DNA of 64,000 bases, taken from positions 11,275-75,274 of the forward strand of contig CAKUYE010000001.1 of NCBI GenBank assembly GCA_934702375.1. Reading direction: 5' to 3'. Positions within the stretch are counted from its first letter, which is position 1, and each line of letters opens with the position of its first letter. Position numbers and translations under genes: made by a program. Positions 3,075 through 58,929 of this stretch are shown piece by piece. This DNA comes from an uncultured Bacillota bacterium. GTDB lineage: Bacteria; Bacillota; Dehalobacteriia; UBA7702. The notes below the pieces were generated by a model that was given only the letters and a program-made list of their open reading frames with translations, did no database searches and was not told the DNA's origin.

Positions 3075-5069
3075 TTATTTTGTTTCATCGGAATCATCGC
3101 TGCCTGTGGTTTCCACGGTTTCCGCTTTGATTTCTCCGGCAACTCCTTCTTCTTTTGTTTCGGTGACATTTGCACTTTCTTTGGTATCGGCAAGATCCGG
3201 TTCTCCGGCGGCTTCGGCGGGAGCATCGGCATCAACGACGATTTCATTTGCTTCCGGGGCAGAGAGGGTGCGGCCATTCATGATATCAAGGAATTCCTGA
3301 GCTTCCATAGTTTCCTTTTCATAGAGAAGCTTGGCAATGACATGAAGTTTATCGATATGCTCCGTAAGGATTTCCGTGCAGCGTTCGTAAGCGGCATCCA
3401 TCATTTTCCGGGCTTCCCGGTCAATGGCGGCGGCAACTTCTTCGGAATAACCGCGATTCTGGCCCAACTCACGACCAAGGAATACCTGCTCTTCGTTATG
3501 ACCAAAGGTCAAAGCGCCCAATTCCTTGGACATACCATAGCGCATAATCATTTTCCGCACCAGCTCCGAAGCACGTTCCAGGTCATTTTGAGCACCGGTG
3601 CTGACATCCTTCAGAATAATTTCTTCGGCAATGCGTCCGCCGAGGAACACCACAATTTCGTCTTCCATATGGCTTTTGGTCATATAGTTGCGATCTTCTT
3701 CGGGAAGCATCAGCGTATAGCCGCCGGCACGTCCCCGGGGAATGATGGAAATTTTATGAACAGGATCCGAGGTGGGGCTGTAAAAAGCAGCCACAGCGTG
3801 TCCGGCTTCGTGATAGGAAGTCAATTTCTTTTCATTGGGACTTACCACCTTGCTCTTCTTTTCCGGACCGGCAATCACACGTTCGCTGGCATCTTCCATT
3901 TCCTGCATATTGATTACTGTTTTCCGCTGACGGGCAGCAAGAAGTGCGGCTTCATTCACCAGGTTTGCAAGGTCCGCCCCGGAGAAACCGGGAGTACGGC
4001 GAGCAATTACCGCAATATCAACATCGTTGCCAAGGGGTTTTCCTTTGCAATGAACACGCAGGATTTCTTCTCTGCCTTTCACATCGGGCATCCCAACGCT
4101 GATCTGGCGGTCAAAACGACCGGGACGCAGCAATGCAGGGTCAAGAATATCGGGACGGTTCGTTGCTGCAATTACAATAATACCGGAATTTTCGGCAAAA
4201 CCATCCATTTCAACAAGAAGCTGGTTCAAAGTCTGTTCACGTTCATCGTGACCACCGCCGACACCGGCACCGCGCTGACGGCCAACGGCATCGATTTCAT
4301 CGATAAAAACAATGCAGGGAGCATTCTTTTTCGCTTCGCCAAAGAGATCACGCACACGAGAAGCCCCAACACCGACAAACATTTCTACGAAGTCCGAACC
4401 GCTGATACTAAAGAATGGAACACCGGCTTCACCGGCAACGGCTTTGGCAAGAAGGGTTTTCCCTGTACCGGGATAACCGTAAAGCAGCACGCCTTTGGGG
4501 ATTTTAGCCCCTAAAGCATTGTAGCGGGTACCGTCTTTTAAGAAATCGACGATCTCTTCCAGTTCTTCCTTTACTTCGTCCACACCAGCAACATCACGAA
4601 AGGTGACCTTTTTATCGCCGGGGGCCTGCATCCGAGCTTTGCTTTTCCCAAACTGCATCACTTTGCCGCCACCACCCTGGCTTTGGTTCATAATGTAAAG
4701 GAATACCGCAAGAATGATGATGGTAGGCACCAGCATGATCAGGAGACTCTGCCACCAAGGCTCACCGGCCTGCTCCGAAAAGGAAACATTGACGCCTTTT
4801 TCATCCAGCTGGGTAATAAAATCATTATCCGGCGGCAGGGTTGCTTTATAAATATTATCTTTTTTATCCGTACCCGTAGCTTCCCAGGCATTGTCGGCCG
4901 CAACGATCACGACCTCTGTATATTCTCCGTTAAGAGCATTGTTCAAGAACTCCGTCGCGGATAAATCCGAAATATCCTGACGATCCCTGTTCATCATTTG
5001 GAAAACCGCAACGCAGCCCAAAACGATGAGAAGGTAAATCATGATGTTCTTTAAAAAATTCTTCTTCAA
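3075..5069 (-). CDS. ftsH: ATP-dependent zinc metalloprotease FtsH
   Basis: 664 aa; N-terminal TM segments, Walker [17 protein letters not shown] region, HEAGHA zinc motif, acidic C-terminal tail. Confidence 0.97.
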
Positions 5070-45191: not shown

Positions 45192-45479
45192 TTATTCGCC
45201 TTCGCGAATAACAAGAAAACGAATTACGTTGTCGGAAATTTTGAAGTTTCTTTCCAACTCTTTGGGAAGTTCTGTATCGCCATTGAAATAGCAAAGTACA
45301 TAGTAACCTTCCCGCAATTTCTGAACTTCATAAGCAAGACGGCGTTTGCCCCACTGTTCCACCTTGGTGACTTCACCACCGTTGGTAGCGATGATAGCGG
45401 AGAATCTTTCAATCGCTGCATTGACCTGTTCTTCATCTAATTCAGGACGGAGAACATACATAGCTTCATAATTGCGCAT
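45192..45479 (-). CDS. rpsF: 30S ribosomal protein S6
   Basis: MRNYEAMYVLRPELDEE start; 95 aa. Confidence 0.93.
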   Translation of the reverse strand: MRNYEAMYVLRPELDEEQVNAAIERFSAIIATNGGEVTKVEQWGKRRLAYEVQKLREGYYVLCYFNGDTELPKELERNFKISDNVIRFLVIREGE

Positions 45480-45620
45480 CGTACACGACACCTCCTTTCG
45501 GACTTTGGCCTCCCGATATCAGGAAGCAAGGAGCTAAGCGGAACACTATCGTTCCACAATAAGCCTAATTAGTATACCATAAAACAACGATAATTGCAAG
45601 GGAAACTTACCTCAAAATAA
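45480..45620 (-). promoter_or_regulatory. rpsF promoter (TTGCAA-17-TATACT) and structured 5' leader (candidate S6:S18-binding rpsF leader element)
   Basis: Minus strand -35 TTGCAA and -10 TATACT; leader has hairpin GGAACGATAGTGTTCC and CGGGAGGCCAAAGTCCGAAAGGAGG adjacent to the RBS. Confidence 0.4.
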
Positions 45621-46577: not shown

Positions 46578-46863
46578 TAAATAAAAGAGCCCTGCTTCTA
46601 GAAAGCAGGGCATTTTCACAACGTAATTACCATGCTTCTTGCGCGGAAGCTAAGACAATAAAAGCACAAAACTCGAAATATCCTGACTTCACATCAACGC
46701 ACAGCTTCGTCTTCCCACCAATGGCAGTGACTGACAACGTCTGAAGCATGCTCCGTTTCACAGTGGCGCGACCGTTCGGGATTCTAACCCGATTTCTTCG
46801 CAGTTCCGTGATTCATTATTTATTTACTATATTATTTATACCACAATTCCAACAAAATTTCAA
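46578..46863 (-). ncRNA. candidate unclassified small RNA of about 250 nt bounded by an extended -10 promoter and an intrinsic terminator; contains a tRNA 3'-half-like segment
   Basis: Minus strand: -35 TTGAAA (46858-46863), 17-nt spacer, TGgTATAAA -10 (46835-46840); terminator GCCCTGCTTTCTAGAAGCAGGGC then TCTTTTATTT (46578-46611); no ORF; internal GGGTTAGAATCCCGAACGGTCGCGCCA resembles a T-arm plus acceptor plus CCA. Confidence 0.4.
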
Positions 46864-52309: not shown

Positions 52310-52419
52310 CGACAACCTCTGCCGATGAGGGAAATACCCAATACAACCGCAAAAAACCGGCCTCCGCAACATAACGGAAGCCGGTTCTTTTTATGCAACT
52401 GTAGGAAGCCCGGAGGCGA

Positions 52420-52869
52420 TTATTGAGAAAGGGAATGATCGATACCCTCCTGGTACACTCCAAGATCGTCAAAATAGGACCACCGACCATTGGTTCGCAG
52501 CATGGCCCAATGATTGACACATTCCTTTTCCGGCAGCAGATCCGATCCGCTGGCAACCTCACCACGATCGTACACGGCGGTGAGAATAAGGATATCTTCA
52601 TTGCCGGAGTCCTTTACGAAATCGGCATAGCGTTCCGGAGCCTCAAGGGTAAGCTCCTCTTCATAAATGATCTCCTTTAAGGTGCAATTTTCGGAGTGAT
52701 CGTAGAAATACTTCGTCAGAGCATCCATGGCTGCGGTAATTTCTTCTTCGGAATATACTTCCGAGGATGCGATGGTGTAAACCGGCTTTTCTTCCCCGGT
52801 TTTTTCTCCGCAGCCGCTGAGATAAACTACAGAAAGCAACAACAAAAGCAAGCAAATTCGTTTTCTCAT
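52420..52869 (-). CDS. lipoprotein, function unknown
   Basis: Signal peptide with lipobox LSGC; 149 aa. Confidence 0.55.
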   Translation of the reverse strand: MRKRICLLLLLLSVVYLSGCGEKTGEEKPVYTIASSEVYSEEEITAAMDALTKYFYDHSENCTLKEIIYEEELTLEAPERYADFVKDSGNEDILILTAVYDRGEVASGSDLLPEKECVNHWAMLRTNGRWSYFDDLGVYQEGIDHSLSQ

Positions 52870-53151
52870 CCTTCCACCTCCGGTTTCATTTCACCCATGG
52901 CTCATTCAAATTGTGTCAGTTCATCGGGGTCTGTAATGATTTTACTTGACGCCGCTACTTCCGACAGCACTTTTTCAACATCGTCTTTCAAGCTTCCTTC
53001 TGCAACAAACTGGAGAACATGAGAAGAGTTGTAATCTTTCATGTTGTTGCAATATACCTACAACGAAATCACAGTAATGTTCTATGCCGAATCGATAACT
53101 TTCATATAGCAAGAAAATTGTTTAACGATGCGAGAAAGGAACTTCAATCCA

Positions 53152-53796
53152 TCATAGGCCGGTATAAAAACCGCTAATCAAATAGTTTTCATCAACTTTA
53201 TCCACAACGACAATACAGCTAAAGGTCGTTTCATCCGGAGAAAGTGTACCATCCGGGGAGGGTTTCATATCAAATTGGCACGTATAGGCCAAAATTCCTT
53301 TTCCACTGTCAAAGGCAGATTCATCTAAAGTGCAGTCCGTAAGCTTTGCTTCGGCCATGCCAAAGACGCCATCCCGGAAATCCCATGCAGAGGTTTCGCC
53401 GGTGGAAAGGAGCTTCATTTCGTAAAAATCGCCGGCATTAAAATCGTCAAAAAAGGTTTCAATCACCTTTTTTCCGGCTTCGGCATCTTCCTTGGTGAGG
53501 CTGCCGTTATTCACCTTTAAGGTGCTGTTTTCGGCATCCCAATAGGCTTCCTTGCCCAGCTGCTCTGCAAAGGCACTTGCGGGGACATATACCACATCCT
53601 GATAAAGCACAGGATAAACCTCGTTGCCATCGGCATCGGTAAGCACTCTTTCTCCACCATCTACGATGATCTTCAGAGAAGATGCTTCGGTCACACCAGC
53701 ATCACTCTTTGCTGTTTCCGAAGAAGAGCAACCGGTAAAGGCCACCACCGCAATCAGAGATAAGGCAAGAGGAAACACACATTTTCGTAGCTTCAT
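53152..53796 (-). CDS. lipoprotein, function unknown
   Basis: Signal peptide with lipobox FTGC; 214 aa. Confidence 0.55.
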   Translation of the reverse strand: MKLRKCVFPLALSLIAVVAFTGCSSSETAKSDAGVTEASSLKIIVDGGERVLTDADGNEVYPVLYQDVVYVPASAFAEQLGKEAYWDAENSTLKVNNGSLTKEDAEAGKKVIETFFDDFNAGDFYEMKLLSTGETSAWDFRDGVFGMAEAKLTDCTLDESAFDSGKGILAYTCQFDMKPSPDGTLSPDETTFSCIVVVDKVDENYLISGFYTGL

Positions 53797-53951
53797 TTTC
53801 GAACCTCCTTTATTTCAAATATCTATAGGCATAATCCCTAGCCGCAATTCGATTATAAATACTCCAATTACAAATTGACAGTCAAATTAGATGAGAGCTT
53901 GTTTTTTATTTGAAGAGGTCCTTTTCGTTATTTAATCTCTTTGGAAAAAGA

Positions 53952-54455
53952 TTATTCTAACATAAGCAATTTTCTTATCCCAAATTTTTTTATCAAATAA
54001 CCAAAGCTAAAAGCGAAGAGAAAACAAAAAGAGTTTGCGATGATGCTAGTTGTTTCAGAATTCACCTCCAGCACTCCCATGATGTTAAACTTATCAATGT
54101 GAGAACCAATAAAATATTCAATAATCGGATAACTATTTTGATGCATTCCAAGTATACCAAAATAAATAATTTCGCCAATTGCATTGAAAAAAATAGGTAG
54201 ATTTCCCAGAAAAAAACTTTTTCTGAAATCATTTAATTCGCAGGCAAAACGATATCCAACAAAAGACCAATACGGAAGTATGGTAATAAAATACACAGCC
54301 AGGAAAAACACTATCAACTCAGTATTTCCTGCTGAAGATCCAGTATCAAAAGGAATCAGATAATCATCCCTATATCCAAAAGGAAAAAATGCAGGAATAA
54401 GCACAAGTACAGACAATCGCAAAATTTTAAAATTTTCACTAATATTGAAGATCAC
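53952..54455 (-). CDS. 4-TM membrane protein of unknown function (last gene of the agrDB transcript; candidate immunity or accessory protein)
   Basis: 167 aa; four hydrophobic helices; 18-nt gap to the upstream SLH-peptidase gene. Confidence 0.45.
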   Translation of the reverse strand: MIFNISENFKILRLSVLVLIPAFFPFGYRDDYLIPFDTGSSAGNTELIVFFLAVYFITILPYWSFVGYRFACELNDFRKSFFLGNLPIFFNAIGEIIYFGILGMHQNSYPIIEYFIGSHIDKFNIMGVLEVNSETTSIIANSFCFLFAFSFGYLIKKFGIRKLLMLE

Positions 54456-54473
54456 ATTATTGATCCTCCTTTG

Positions 54474-55772
54474 CTAAAACTTATATATTGCCGAAAATCC
54501 ATTATATACCCTATCATTCATTATATTTAGAGGCGTAATTATCGTCGGGTTTATATATCTAACAACACCTGTATTAGGATCTTTATAATATATTTTATAA
54601 TAAAATCCAGCTCCGTCGCGATAGCATTTGTATGCGAGTCCAGAACAATTTATTTTTTGCGTATTTGATAAGGGAGCCGTTGCACTCCAAGAATAGTTTC
54701 TACCTGCACCATTTACAAAATAAGTTTGACCATACCAAGCTGCGCTAACAGATACCTGACGGCAATTTGTATCGCCGTTGCAATATTCAGGAATTCTTCT
54801 TAAAACATACGTGTATCGATCACTATATCGATTAGCCCATGTTTGATATGAAACCTTTTGAACTCCCGAATCAACAATCTCAAGAATTCGGTCACCACAT
54901 GCCATCCCGATATGACCAAAATAGAATGTTCCATTAGTATACAGAATATCTCCATCAAGAAATTGGAATCCACCTCCAACAAAACCACTAGGAGAAATAA
55001 TGTTATTGAAAATTGGAGCATTCTTAAAATAATTGACAGAACTGGGATCATTTGCCAAATGCTCCATTTCATCCTGAGCAGCTTTAATTTCTGCATCTAA
55101 TTCTTCCTGATGTATTTCTATATATTGCTGCATTTCAAATCCTGATAAATAGAGGTAATAAATTGCGATCATTTTACATGCTTCGCTACGTTTTATGTTA
55201 CTTTTAGGATTGTAGTTTTGATTTTTGTCTCCACAAAGTATATCTGCAAGTTGTAGTTTTTCTATATCAATCTTCGCCCATTCCGAAATATTTGATTCAT
55301 CTTTAAAATGCATTTTTTCTTTAGGGTTGGGAAGTTGAAATTCATCAATCGTATTAACATGGCGTCCTAAAATAACCGCGGCTTCTTCGCGGGTTATTTT
55401 TTTGTTTGGCGCAAAAAAATTATTTCCCATACCTTGTACGATTTGACTATCATATGCCCATTGAACCGGTTTTGCATACCAGCTTTCATAGTTTACATCG
55501 TAAAAATCCGTTATGCCTGTGTACTGCGAGAAATCTATTTGCGAAACATTTGCCAAAATTTTTACAAATTCTGCCCGAGTAATATCATCATTAGGCATAA
55601 ATTCATTATTATTTACCCCAGATACAAAAAACCTTTCGGATAAAAGCGTAACATAATCGTAGAACCAATCTTGTTCTGTTACATCTTGAAAGGACGTAGT
55701 TTGAGCGAAAGTTGCAGATGAAAAGAAAGCGCAAAAGATAATTGCTAAAATAGAAATTGAAACTTTTTTCAT
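54474..55772 (-). CDS. secreted SLH-domain protein with C-terminal circularly permuted papain-fold (NlpC/P60-superfamily, YiiX/DUF830-like) peptidase domain
   Basis: Signal peptide; two SLH repeats (FQDV...W..YV and FPNDDITRAEFVKIL type); C-terminal region with His before Cys (GHIGMA ... NCSGLAYKCY), the order seen in permuted NlpC/P60 enzymes. Confidence 0.6.
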   Translation of the reverse strand: MKKVSISILAIIFCAFFSSATFAQTTSFQDVTEQDWFYDYVTLLSERFFVSGVNNNEFMPNDDITRAEFVKILANVSQIDFSQYTGITDFYDVNYESWYAKPVQWAYDSQIVQGMGNNFFAPNKKITREEAAVILGRHVNTIDEFQLPNPKEKMHFKDESNISEWAKIDIEKLQLADILCGDKNQNYNPKSNIKRSEACKMIAIYYLYLSGFEMQQYIEIHQEELDAEIKAAQDEMEHLANDPSSVNYFKNAPIFNNIISPSGFVGGGFQFLDGDILYTNGTFYFGHIGMACGDRILEIVDSGVQKVSYQTWANRYSDRYTYVLRRIPEYCNGDTNCRQVSVSAAWYGQTYFVNGAGRNYSWSATAPLSNTQKINCSGLAYKCYRDGAGFYYKIYYKDPNTGVVRYINPTIITPLNIMNDRVYNGFSAIYKF

Positions 55773-55822
55773 ATCTGTTCCTCCTAATTATAATATATTT
55801 TCTAAATTATATCAAGTTGATT

Positions 55823-56395
55823 TTACCAATATTTATTTTTGATATATCCCAAAATCAGCATTAAAACCATTGTAATAAACGCTGCAAAGATACATGTGCT
55901 GAGCGTGGTATAATTTATAAAGCATGCTATTATAAAAATGAATGTTTCGATGAATAAAAGATAACGTATTTGTTTTTTGAAAAAAAATTGTTCTTTTGTC
56001 GTAAAAGGTTTGTTTTTATCTTCCATTGGTGCTATGATAAAGATAACAGCAAAAGCAAGTATCATTCCGATACAGCAGACCACATCGCTTATCGCGAAAA
56101 AACGGATCGCCAACAGTATTGCTGTGATCAGAATTACAGAAAAAATGTAACATCTCCCGGGTGTTTCAGCATGGTATCCCCCTGCGTATATCCGAAGAGG
56201 AATATATGCCGCCAGATACAGTATCACCTCCATAACGGAATCAAGGAACAACCCGATCAACAGGGCGGTCAACAAATTGAAAAAAAGCACGACTCCCTGA
56301 TACATCCCATAACAATACAGATCCTTCATTTCCGATGTAATAATGCCGGTATCTATGAAACAATCACATAACTTAAGACACACTCTTTGAATCAT
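55823..56395 (-). CDS. agrB: accessory gene regulator protein B (AgrD-processing membrane peptidase)
   Basis: About 190 aa polytopic membrane protein; conserved PLRIYAGGYHAETPGRCYIFS block with the catalytic His and Cys of AgrB; ATGA start/stop overlap with agrD. Confidence 0.8.
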   Translation of the reverse strand: MIQRVCLKLCDCFIDTGIITSEMKDLYCYGMYQGVVLFFNLLTALLIGLFLDSVMEVILYLAAYIPLRIYAGGYHAETPGRCYIFSVILITAILLAIRFFAISDVVCCIGMILAFAVIFIIAPMEDKNKPFTTKEQFFFKKQIRYLLFIETFIFIIACFINYTTLSTCIFAAFITMVLMLILGYIKNKYW

Positions 56396-56544
56396 TTGCA
56401 ATTAATTTTGCTTAGCTTTTCTGCACCGGCAGGCAATTTGGGCTGATGCATAACAAATAAACATGCCGTGCTTGCATTAACGGCGGTTACAAAAAGTGCC
56501 AGACTTGCCATGATGCTACCGATTCGGTACATAAATTTTTTCAT
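56392..56544 (-). CDS. agrD: AgrD-like autoinducing peptide precursor (50 aa: MKKFMYRIGSIMASLALFVTAVNASTACLFVMHQPKLPAGAEKLSKINCK)
   Basis: Amphipathic N-terminal leader; central STACLFVM with Cys 5 residues before the HQP processing motif, the Clostridium perfringens-type AgrD pattern (SACLWFTHQPEEP); AGGAGG RBS upstream. Confidence 0.7.
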   Translation of the reverse strand: MKKFMYRIGSIMASLALFVTAVNASTACLFVMHQPKLPAGAEKLSKINCK

Positions 56545-56587
56545 TGTACAAATGCCTCCTGAACTTAGTTTTTCTGTTGGCATGTTC

Positions 56588-56654
56588 ATTATAAAGCATT
56601 TCTTTTCAGAAATGTCGGGAAATGTTGTGAATTGCAAATTTTTTGTTGAAATTT
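56588..56654 (-). promoter_or_regulatory. candidate autoregulated agr promoter: two LytTR-type direct repeats (TGTTGTGAATT / TGTTGAAATTT, 10-nt gap) upstream of a -10 TATAAT on the minus strand
   Basis: Imperfect 11-bp direct repeats at 56624-56634 and 56644-56654; -10 at 56588-56593 on the minus strand; geometry resembles the AgrA boxes of the staphylococcal P2/P3 promoters. Confidence 0.45.
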
Positions 56655-56675
56655 GTATGTTAGGAGGTAAAGCCT

Positions 56676-57380
56676 TTGTTTCATATTGCAGTTTGTGATG
56701 ACGAAAAAAATATTTGCGAGGAAATTCGCACTTTTGCTCAACGCTATGCTGAAGAAAAAACCTGTTCTGTAGATTGCAGCATATTCCTTTCCGGGGAGGC
56801 TCTTTATGAATCTCTGGCTAGAGGAAATTATTATGACGTAATCTTTCTGGACATTGAACTTTTTCACATCAGCGGTATTGAAATCGGGGAATATATCCGC
56901 CGGCAATTGAAGGATATGCTTTCCCAGATCGTATACATTTCCTCCCGTCCGGAATATGCCATGGAGCTTTTTGCAACGCATCCCTTGGATTTTTTAACAA
57001 AGCCGATTTCCTTTGAGAAATTTTCAGTCTGTTTAAATCAAACCGCAGAGCTAAAAAGTAAAAGAGGCGCATTTTTTTCTTATAACTGCCGGGGAGAATA
57101 TCGAAGAATCCCGTTATCCAATATCCTCTATTTTGAAAGCCAAAACCGCAAAATCTATGTAACAAGAATCAACGGAAAAGAAGAATATTACGGCAAACTC
57201 AACGATGTGGAAATGCAGGTAGATGATTATGGTTTTTTACGAATCCATAAATCTTTTATTGTAAACCCACAGTATGTAGATATTTACGGGAAAACAACCG
57301 TTACGATGAACAACGGAGATATCCTGCCTGTCAGCCGAGATAAACAAAAAGAAATTGCAGCTAAAATAATAGAAGTATAA
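56676..57380 (+). CDS. agrA: LytTR-family response regulator (AgrA-like)
   Basis: TTG start after AGGAGGT RBS; N-terminal receiver (CDDE, D at about 59) and C-terminal LytTR DNA-binding domain. Confidence 0.8.
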   Translation: MFHIAVCDDEKNICEEIRTFAQRYAEEKTCSVDCSIFLSGEALYESLARGNYYDVIFLDIELFHISGIEIGEYIRRQLKDMLSQIVYISSRPEYAMELFATHPLDFLTKPISFEKFSVCLNQTAELKSKRGAFFSYNCRGEYRRIPLSNILYFESQNRKIYVTRINGKEEYYGKLNDVEMQVDDYGFLRIHKSFIVNPQYVDIYGKTTVTMNNGDILPVSRDKQKEIAAKIIEV

Positions 57381-57395
57381 GTTTGGTGGTTTACG

Positions 57396-58691
57396 ATGGA
57401 CATCCTTTATTCTTGCTCTCTTACGGTGTATTCTTTTTTTAATGTGTATATTCTGCATCGATTTAATCGCTCTTTTTTTGGAACATGCATCACACCACGG
57501 TATATCGAATTAGGGTCTTATTTTTTCATATTCCTTTCAAATACAATCATTTCTTTATGGATCAATATACCGATAGTGATATTGCTATGCAATGTAATAG
57601 GGTATTATTTACTAACCTATAACTATCAATGCGATCAAAAGCATCGAGTTTTCTTACCTTTAATCTACATATGCATTACCACCTTGGCAGAATTGATTAT
57701 ATTCTTCTTGTCTACCTATACCCCAATTCAAATTTCGGAAATAAACTCGTACAATTTCGCTTTTGGACCGGTCTTTTCAGCAATTTTGTCTTATGCAATC
57801 GTAAAAATTCTTATTGCATTAAAATCATCAAGCGCCCAAATCAAGCTGCCGCTTACCCATTGGCTTCTTCTTTTAGTGATTCCTCTGGTTTCGTTTTACC
57901 TCATTCTGCTCATCATGAGCTTTGAAGATGCAGATCCGAAAACAGTGGCACTCTGCTGCATATTGGCATTGATAATCAATTTTGTGGCCTTCTATTTTTA
58001 CGAAGTGGTTACAGCTTATGCCATAAGCAAAATGGAAAAGCAGCGGGAGGAAGAAAAAAACCGTTACTATCTGCGCCAGCTGGAAACGATGGAGGCATTT
58101 TCCGAATCTATGCGCAGCTTCCGGCACGACTTAAAAAACCACACCATTGCCATGCAGGCATATCTAAAAAACAAACAGTACGACGCCCTGGAAACCTATC
58201 TGTCCGATACCTTTATTGAAAAGGCCTTGTCCGAAGAAAGCATCCATTGCGGCAACACCGTGATTGACAGTATTTTAAATTTCAAAATACACGAAGCGGG
58301 AAATAAGGGGATTACCCTTGAAGCAAAGGTTTCCATCCCGCCCCAACTGCACATTTCCGATTCTGATCTGACGGTGATTTTGGGAAATCTCCTCGACAAT
58401 GCCATAGAAGCAGTGGAACCTTTAACCGAAGAACGTGTAATCCAACTGACGATTTCCTATCAAAAAGGAAACTTGATTCTTTCGGTGAAAAATCCCTATA
58501 AAGGAGAATTGCTGAAAAAAGGAGACCGATGGATTACCTCCAAAAAAGATAAGGATTTACACGGCTACGGCTTGGGCAATGTGAAACATATTGTCGATAA
58601 AAACGGCGGCACCATGCGGATTCAAACGGAACAGCAAATCTTCTCCGTGACGATGATGCTATACGACACGAATACAGACGAAAGCCACTAA
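57396..58691 (+). CDS. agrC: AgrC-like sensor histidine kinase (HPK10 family)
   Basis: Six N-terminal TM helices; H-box FRHDLKNH; N-box LGNLLDNAIEA; G-box GYGLGNV. Confidence 0.8.
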   Translation: MDILYSCSLTVYSFFNVYILHRFNRSFFGTCITPRYIELGSYFFIFLSNTIISLWINIPIVILLCNVIGYYLLTYNYQCDQKHRVFLPLIYICITTLAELIIFFLSTYTPIQISEINSYNFAFGPVFSAILSYAIVKILIALKSSSAQIKLPLTHWLLLLVIPLVSFYLILLIMSFEDADPKTVALCCILALIINFVAFYFYEVVTAYAISKMEKQREEEKNRYYLRQLETMEAFSESMRSFRHDLKNHTIAMQAYLKNKQYDALETYLSDTFIEKALSEESIHCGNTVIDSILNFKIHEAGNKGITLEAKVSIPPQLHISDSDLTVILGNLLDNAIEAVEPLTEERVIQLTISYQKGNLILSVKNPYKGELLKKGDRWITSKKDKDLHGYGLGNVKHIVDKNGGTMRIQTEQQIFSVTMMLYDTNTDESH

Positions 58692-58929
58692 ACTGAGCCT
58701 ACTTCCATTTCCTGCCAAAAGTTCCACAAAACGTCCACAAAGAGATACAGAAAGAACACGTTTTTTCGGTAAGATAAATACTGTGAAAGCGATTTGGTGA
58801 TACAGGAATAAGCCAAAGAGCAAAAGATGGCGTATATTTTAAACGAGATGAAAGGTATCCCACCCTAAAAAAGATCCTCATGCAATGCATGGGGATCTTT
58901 TGATTTTCAAGAATTCCGTTGGAAGCAGG

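Follow-up and report, generated by a model that had tools for sequence, protein, structure and literature searches.

Within the 64-kb stretch of DNA analyzed here (the window), positions 53952 to 55772 contain exactly two open reading frames (ORFs), both on the minus strand and directly downstream of the quorum-sensing genes agrD and agrB: one encodes a 432-aa secreted protein with an SLH module and a circularly permuted NlpC/P60 enzyme domain, the other a 167-aa membrane protein with four predicted helices. We tentatively favor the view that the two form a quorum-sensing-controlled, lipid-targeting toxin and its membrane immunity protein, an interpretation whose chance of being right we put a little below even. 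Four findings lead us to it, namely, the existence of the end of the enzyme gene and the whole membrane protein gene as a dimorphic cassette, the co-variation of enzyme tail and membrane protein, recurrent enzyme loss in which the membrane protein is retained, and the occurrence of solo and tandem membrane protein genes. Because these match known toxin/immunity loci and the precedent of Tox-Act1 and Imm-Act1, a toxin/immunity function is preferred over the alternatives weighed below. The features that carry the argument are as follows.

54474-55772, minus strand: gene for the secreted, SLH-anchored permuted NlpC/P60 (YiiX/LnsA-like) enzyme, 432 aa, ATG start (from the ORF, Pfam, structural model, and hhalign)
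55704-55772, minus strand: predicted Sec signal peptide, residues 1 to 23, cleavage after TFA (read from the sequence: MKKVSISILAIIFCAFFSSATFA, followed by QT)
55158-55694, minus strand: three SLH repeats, residues ~27 to 70, 88 to 133, and 155 to 205 (PF00395, 6.4e-29, three stretches; repeat alignment)
55038-55130, minus strand: helical linker, residues 215 to 245, QQYIEIHQEELDAEIKAAQDEMEHL (alignment with homologs)
54477-54995, minus strand: permuted NlpC/P60 catalytic domain, residues 260 to 432 (His287 at 54912-54914, Glu298 at 54879-54881, Cys376 at 54645-54647)
53952-54455, minus strand: gene for the four-helix membrane protein, 167 aa, GTG start (AGGAGG 8 nt upstream; public protein P0140)
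53812-54592, minus strand: dimorphic cassette, 780 bp, with the last ~40 enzyme codons, the whole four-helix gene, and the downstream spacer
54942-55740, minus strand: segment of 799 bp whose frameshifting deletion is found in strains L001 and L002

An earlier reading of this DNA from its letters alone (the sequence-only reading) had described a secreted protein followed by a small polytopic membrane protein, and the ORF list and hydrophobic segments bear this out. It had also placed the secreted protein directly downstream of agrDB, and the order agrD, agrB, enzyme gene, four-helix gene is indeed conserved across lineages, recurring in the L040 lineage at a protein identity of only 72%. Since the four-gene order recurs there and the identical protein is present on at least eight public contigs, a chance pair of ORFs is ruled out.

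We compared three alleles of the pair: A, from the window; B, from contig L006, which encodes a 432-aa enzyme variant 85% identical to the window protein; and C, from the diverged L040 lineage. At the DNA level, L006 is 96% identical to the window from agr to position 54592, unalignable by blastn from there to 53812, and 94 to 97% identical beyond. Between alleles A and B, protein identity is 97.4% for AgrB, 99.5% for the SLH part, and 91.5% for the catalytic core, falling to 55.8% for the enzyme tail and 43.1% for the membrane protein; between B and C, the corresponding values are 68.8%, 67.8%, 86.2%, 81.4%, and 58.7%. From this pattern it follows that tail type and membrane protein type travel together, whatever the genomic background. 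Among 12 members of the enzyme's 90% cluster, there are just two discrete allele classes and no intermediates. In the structural model, the variable tail follows the Cys helix and comprises a beta-hairpin, a short helix, and the last strand. The membrane protein had been taken for an orphan neighbor in the sequence-only reading; it proves to co-vary with the enzyme tail as part of a swapped cassette and to be one member of a distinct small family.

Some strains do without the enzyme. In L001 and L002, which come from two different samples, the 799-bp deletion takes out the SLH module and the His-bearing half of the enzyme, and both strains retain agr and an intact B-type four-helix gene. A further B-type variant (P0159) has a frameshifted enzyme C terminus. 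Separately, P0005 (on a 1,707-bp contig, as is P0148) appears to join a signal peptide start to the middle of the catalytic domain and may represent a second independent enzyme deletion beside a four-helix gene.

The 167-aa protein has four hydrophobic segments, and its positive-inside pattern suggests a topology with both termini inside and with loops 28 to 40 and 105 to 136 outside. It has no Pfam, NCBIfam, or PDB match. Its family comprises twelve 90%-identity clusters (151 to 172 aa); the 12 members examined have no match to CPBP/Abi or any other Pfam family at E ≤ 10 and no PDB sequence match. Invariant across the family are N85, N91, and E95 in the third helix and G117-S-H-I-D-K122 in the predicted long outside loop. 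On these searches, the four-helix proteins are a new, previously undescribed family. Some homologs are arranged as tandem pairs that no enzyme gene precedes (L038 and L039, with contig ends limiting the certainty for L038), and others occur singly in unrelated contexts (L043 and L044).

The enzymatic half of the secreted protein was identified by fold and profile rather than by direct family matches. GHIGMA (residues 286 to 291) precedes NCSGLAYKCY (residues 375 to 384), confirming the His-then-Cys order that the sequence-only reading had pointed out. Canonical NlpC/P60 membership (PF00877) fails on two counts, since the family's Cys-before-His order is reversed and the similarity, confined to the Cys helix, is below the Pfam threshold (E of 0.015 to 0.24; 11.9 to 15.7 bits against a cut-off of 23). 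With the catalytic domain as query, a PDB sequence search returned nothing, a scan of representative genomes found no relative, and a word-indexed protein search found only two near-identical fragments. Among 1.84 billion cluster representatives there were 23 matches at E ≤ 1e-3; besides near-identical entries, these are small signal-peptide proteins of 197 to 283 aa that share the motifs GDIL.T...GH.GI...(L/I)(E/H)I, W..YP..V.R, AAWY..Y..G.G..Y, YCS.LVW.CY..GA.F, and P.I.PYD...NGF. PF05708 (Peptidase_C92, permuted YaeF/YiiX) is matched by 16 of 20 relatives, at best with 6.9e-9. A profile search added 126 relatives, nearly all with PF28265 (Acyl_LnsA) and/or PF05708; frequent names among them are "YiiX/YebB-like NlpC/P60 family cysteine hydrolase" and "YycO." Pentatricopeptide PDB matches of one profile were discarded, as they came from an N-terminal repeat in Listeria-type relatives.

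A single-sequence AlphaFold model of the full protein was unusable (predicted local distance difference test score [pLDDT], 32.6). An AlphaFold2 model of residues 260 to 432 built on a 104-sequence alignment reached a pLDDT of 88.6 and a predicted template modeling score of 0.85. A Foldseek comparison of this model with the PDB placed E. coli YiiX (2if6) first (E = 9e-4; probability, 1.00), and an hhalign comparison of the family profile with YiiX gave 91% probability (E = 9.6e-7), pairing GDIL with GDII, GHIGM with SHTGM, ILEIV with VFEAV, and CS with CS (the YiiX Cys motif being YCSEVVW). Because all three residues align with their YiiX counterparts, His287, Glu298, and Cys376 occupy predicted catalytic positions; Glu298 aligns with the Glu of VFEAV, in a column that is E or H in relatives. 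In the 104 relatives, Cys and Ser are invariant and His nearly so, and every full-length allele keeps His, Glu, and Cys. The Foldseek and profile check set beforehand for the permuted YiiX-like fold thus recovered papain-like His and Cys positions in an enzymatic fold, permuted members account for all of the best structural and profile matches, and the fold fits the solved permuted structures better than canonical NlpC/P60. By these comparisons the domain can be assigned securely to the permuted YiiX/LnsA branch, with its predicted catalytic His, Glu, and Cys in place.

To our knowledge, no permuted NlpC/P60 member has been shown to cleave peptidoglycan, and we know of no function assigned to YiiX itself. 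The characterized permuted members are phospholipases or acyltransferases (PMC12994826, PMC13559823), and the amidase or peptidoglycan hydrolase activity expected in the sequence-only reading does not agree with them. YiiX and 3kw0 structures have a lipid-binding pocket (PMC3142127). LnsA is a secreted YiiX-like protein that acts with the polytopic membrane protein LnsB to N-acylate lipoproteins with the sn-1 chain of phosphatidylglycerol, and its expression in E. coli was extremely toxic (PMC7387801, PMC13559823). Tox-Act1 and TseH are permuted NlpC/P60 type VI effectors with phospholipase activity (PMC12994826). In light of this literature, a fatty-acyl ester or amide would be the better prior for the substrate of the window enzyme.

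The N-terminal half of the enzyme predicts where it would act. The Sec-type signal peptide that the sequence-only reading had noted can be read from the sequence, and all homologs in the alignment begin with similar ones; its two SLH repeats turn out to be three. The small secreted homologs have the same helical element as the window protein between signal peptide and domain. The combination of SLH with a YiiX/LnsA-type domain was found in no protein outside a small clade, and a search of representatives returned a single 50%-identity cluster. No pyruvyl transferase (PS_pyruv_trans, CsaB) was present among the 38 window ORFs scanned with Pfam, a set that covers the larger ORFs of these 64 kb only. 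Other SLH proteins occur in the related loci L009 and L010, both from metagenome-assembled genomes (MAGs).

Three of the four closest small homologs also have a small polytopic membrane ORF 10 to 22 bp after their stop codon. A single conserved partner family was considered and rejected: the membrane ORFs downstream of P0006 and P0010 are not homologous to the four-helix family, and different small membrane partners are therefore the preferred description. In Listeria and on a Bacillus-type contig, more distant LnsA-like (PF28265) genes (L036, 5001 to 6227; L034, 956 to 2485) adjoin DUF3139 genes, in Listeria 28 bp downstream, which suggests that DUF3139 is a different recurrent small partner in that LnsA-like branch.

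We next consider the link to quorum sensing. The island that holds the pair encodes a full agr set (AgrB, AgrD, an HPK10-type kinase, and a LytTR regulator), with the following features.

57396-58691, plus strand: AgrC-like sensor histidine kinase, 431 aa (PF14501 HATPase_c_5, 1.3e-25; polytopic N-terminal half)
56676-57380, plus strand: LytTR-type response regulator, 234 aa, divergent from agrD (PF04397 LytTR, 3.2e-19; PF00072, 8.3e-11)
56623-56650, minus strand: candidate LytTR binding site upstream of agrD, direct repeat CAACA-N16-CAACA (putative function)
56588-56593, minus strand: TATAAT -10 box of a putative agrD promoter, 29 nt downstream of the second repeat
56392-56544, minus strand: agrD, 50 aa, predicted ring CLFVM (TIGR04223, 6.5e-11; called as a 50-aa gene in public contigs)
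55823-56395, minus strand: agrB, 190 aa (PF04647, 9.4e-35)
55787-55815, minus strand: promoter-like TTGATA-17-TATAAT in the agrB/enzyme spacer (11/12 match, the best in the region)

The kinase matches the AgrC model NF046015 at 2.9e-15, below its cut-off. The CAACA repeat, with a period of 21 bp, is followed by ACATTTC-N3-ACATTTC; it occurs once in the island, only upstream of agrD, and these repeat blocks are kept between the window and L040, where the surrounding intergenic sequence is ~70% identical. The genes downstream are closely packed: the stop of agrD and the start of agrB overlap, 50 bp lie between agrB and the enzyme gene, and the enzyme and four-helix genes are separated by 18 bp (9 to 14 bp in L006 and L040). 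A scan of the 50-bp spacer between agrB and the enzyme gene found no terminator-like site, and in L040 the agrB stop codon overlaps the enzyme start codon. An internal promoter for the enzyme gene was set aside, as promoter-like sites in the region are as frequent as in shuffled sequence (22 versus 21); L040, in which agrB runs into the enzyme start, lacks the spacer site. A LytTR-activated promoter reading through agrDB into the cargo would fit this layout, and we infer quorum-sensing control of the enzyme/membrane protein pair from the operon structure. The AgrD core (the CLFVM ring) is identical in alleles A and B. The predicted AgrD ring of L040 (755 to 907) differs (CHFIV), which would make that lineage a different pherotype.

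Taken together, the tentatively favored mechanism would run as follows. At high cell density, the pheromone would activate the LytTR regulator at the repeat upstream of agrD, and transcription would then continue through agrDB into the enzyme and membrane protein genes. Once exported, the enzyme would attach by its SLH repeats to pyruvylated wall polymer, either on the producer or on related neighbors, where its Cys-His center would strip or transfer the fatty acyl chains of membrane lipids, much as Tox-Act1 and TseH do. The producer would be protected by the four-helix protein, which on the outer side of the membrane would bind the cognate enzyme through the latter's variable C-terminal hairpin (residues 390 to 410), giving a toxin/immunity module with at least two specificity types within one pheromone group. 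As in toxin/immunity loci, the candidate immunity gene lies directly downstream on the same strand, the toxin end and the immunity gene are replaced together between close relatives (in three independent pairs only), and the membrane protein gene is found both as an orphan and as the survivor of enzyme loss.

Several observations weigh against this interpretation. The co-variation of tail and partner was seen in three enzyme/partner pairs only. The window protein itself has no PF05708 match, at E ≤ 1 for the full protein or E ≤ 10 for the domain alone, and its membership in that family is therefore transitive, since only its relatives reach it. Fourteen residues ahead of the Cys, at least 90% of the 104 relatives have a Tyr, and the window protein has Trp362, like the other SLH-type alleles (with Tyr360 two residues earlier), and the Tyr adjoining the Cys in relatives is Asn375; with these two near-invariant Tyr residues replaced in the SLH subfamily, catalytic competence is assumed. 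In LnsA, the catalytic center includes Tyr129, 14 residues before Cys143 (PMC13559823). On the partner side, the invariant N85, N91, and E95 within a helix and the GSHIDK loop resemble a functional site as much as a binding surface, and solo homologs are no proof of immunity on their own because LnsB-type proteins also occur solo in genomes without LnsA (PMC13559823). Lastly, an SLH-anchored enzyme might stay on the producer, which would be unusual for a diffusible toxin.

The alternative that survives best, although we consider it unlikely, is a two-component acyltransferase resembling LnsA/LnsB, in which the enzyme would dock on the four-helix protein at the outer membrane face and move an acyl chain from phospholipid to an envelope acceptor (a lipoprotein N terminus or another lipid), such that the cell remodels its own envelope at high density. 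Relatives at 22 to 33% identity have PF28265, and LnsA likewise carries a signal peptide and depends on a polytopic partner in the membrane (PMC13559823); however, the four-helix protein has no CPBP/LnsB similarity, a fragment 99% identical to the window protein (P0001) has no precomputed PF28265 or PF05708 match, and the staphylococcal lnsA and lnsB genes lie apart (PMC7387801). The co-variation of tail and partner would be expected under this model too, because one loop of LnsA sets partner recognition and few changes alter cross-recognition (PMC13559823). The invariant polar residues of the membrane protein would fit a functional partner, and two lipoprotein genes move with the island, but an enzyme with an SLH module would sit in the wall, not at the membrane. 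Deep within-species dimorphism (43% identity, compared with 97 to 99% in the flanks) and repeated enzyme loss with the partner kept would also be unexpected for a housekeeping modification.

SLH modules commonly carry wall-modifying enzymes, and the secreted protein could on that ground be a quorum-sensing-induced, SLH-anchored peptidoglycan amidase or endopeptidase (an autolysin) with the four-helix protein an unrelated or regulatory neighbor. We regard this as very doubtful: the weak NlpC_P60 similarity near the Cys motif points toward it, but structure and profile comparisons alike have permuted members as their best matches, Tox-Act1-intoxicated cells keep their sacculus and TseH is a phospholipase (PMC12994826), and a cassette swap that includes the membrane protein would be left unexplained. 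Least probable of all is a surface-variation locus, in which the tail and the outer loops of the membrane protein would be diversified as exposed targets (phage or predator receptors) and the enzyme would have an unrelated extracellular role or be losing its function; discrete alleles within one species, several degraded enzyme genes, and two replaced near-invariant Tyr residues would suit it, but across the SLH part, which is just as exposed, the alleles are 99.5% identical, all full-length alleles retain His, Glu, and Cys, and the catalytic core is the part best conserved between distant lineages (85 to 86% versus 67 to 69% for SLH and AgrB), which argues for selection on catalysis.

The locus resembles several known systems in part. 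Like SLH-anchored surface enzymes of S-layer-bearing Firmicutes, the window protein has a signal peptide, a three-repeat SLH module, and a C-terminal enzymatic domain, and differs from them in the YiiX/LnsA type of that domain. Compared with YaeF/YiiX-like enzymes (PF05708; 2if6 and 3kw0), it is below the Pfam threshold, adds the SLH triplet and helical linker, has Trp and Asn for two near-invariant Tyr residues, and is encoded in an agr operon beside a four-helix protein. With S. aureus LnsA/LnsB, where LnsA physically contacts its polytopic partner, it shares the pairing of a signal-peptide YiiX-like Cys/His enzyme with a polytopic membrane protein, and its relatives are classed as Acyl_LnsA. 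The partner here, in contrast, has four helices in ~160 aa and no CPBP similarity, the two genes are adjacent and co-vary as a cassette, and the enzyme is SLH-anchored, linked to quorum sensing, and dispensable in some strains. In classical agr loci (agrBDCA) and LytTR pheromone bacteriocin loci, AgrB, AgrD, an HPK10-type kinase, and a LytTR regulator are likewise found, and class II bacteriocin operons pair a secreted effector with a protective membrane protein under pheromone control. The window departs from the single agrBDCA operon order, with agrD-agrB-cargo on the minus strand and the regulator and kinase genes divergent on the plus strand, and where those loci encode a peptide bacteriocin or RNAIII, its cargo is a 432-aa enzyme. 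The gene for Imm-Act1, a membrane protein, lies just downstream of that for Tox-Act1 (PMC12994826). Whereas Tox-Act1/Imm-Act1 and TseH/TsiH (6v98) belong to Gram-negative type VI secretion, the enzyme here is predicted to use Sec export and SLH wall binding in a Gram-positive spore-former, and the membrane protein has four helices instead of two, with unrelated sequence and predicted agr regulation.

No earlier description of an agr-linked SLH/YiiX protein was found in the literature. Agr systems, SLH modules, permuted NlpC/P60 domains, and membrane partners are each known; what is new here is their combination in one operon, the four-helix family, and the allele-paired cassette. It is possible, and we hold this more tentatively still, that the locus represents a Gram-positive, quorum-sensing-triggered toxin system in which an SLH-targeted permuted acyl-hydrolase would act on neighbors' lipids, with a four-helix immunity family and at least two specificity types within one pheromone group; if so, kin discrimination would operate one level below the pherotype. 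Only in recent work were permuted NlpC/P60 enzymes linked to functions, in staphylococcal lipoprotein N-acylation and in Gram-negative type VI phospholipase toxins, and this locus would extend them to anaerobic spore-formers, with Sec export and SLH anchoring, an agr operon, and a new allele-paired partner family. With two genes, two natural alleles, and one natural knockout, it is a compact system in which to ask whether such enzymes are weapons or envelope-remodeling tools and how partner specificity is coded in a ~40-residue hairpin. It also counsels caution in annotating the YiiX/LnsA branch as "cell wall hydrolase."

The pair lies in an apparent insertion. The island core has a G+C content of 0.33 to 0.37 against ~0.46 in its surroundings; outside it, the window carries FtsH, TilS, SpoIIE, his and aro genes, DnaB, and rpsF-ssb-rpsR and is ordinary chromosome of a spore-forming Firmicute. 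In a scan of GTDB representative genomes, the flanking S11 peptidase had its best matches, at 70 to 72% identity, in Clostridia MAGs, and the species of the window is therefore missing from that representative set. In the related MAG locus L009, the RNase H, AIRC, and NhaA genes come right after the S11 gene, and the block from kinase to p149 (~52310 to 58929 in the window, with kinase, regulator, agrDB, enzyme, four-helix protein, and the lipoproteins p214 and p149) is missing; this direct junction identifies the ~6.6-kb block as an insertion. Neither an integrase nor flanking repeats were detected at the island. A phage, lysin, or prophage origin was rejected, there being no phage match and no viral contig match for the four-helix family. 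A plasmid search returned only one distant enzyme homolog, a YiiX/YebB-like hydrolase in Halobacillus (NZ_CP128167.1 [L033], 3327 to 4028); as one of four genes on a 4.6-kb MobV plasmid, it indicates that this enzyme family can be mobile cargo.

Two lipoprotein genes are carried along with the island.

53152-53796, minus strand: p214, a 214-aa Cu_amine_oxidN1-like lipoprotein, downstream of the four-helix gene
52420-52869, minus strand: p149, a 149-aa lipoprotein with no family match in Pfam or NCBIfam

In strains L001 and L002, an unrelated 194-aa protein (L001, 10976 to 11560) fills the p214 slot, and the p214 position is thus a second variable slot beside the cassette. In L040, a p149-like lipoprotein gene (3315 to 3767) starts 4 nt after the four-helix gene, and p149 may, given this spacing, be a third cargo gene of the operon.

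Two further elements were noted in the window. Between the convergent kinase and S11 peptidase genes, a 16-nt perfect-type palindrome (58869 to 58901; 94% complementary, 1-nt loop) is probably a bidirectional terminator that marks the island edge. A cobalamin riboswitch (46658 to 46825, minus strand; RF00174, 59.6 bits) is followed by ~1.1 kb with no credible ORF until rpsF (45192 to 45491) and may control a noncoding RNA or an unrecognized small gene.

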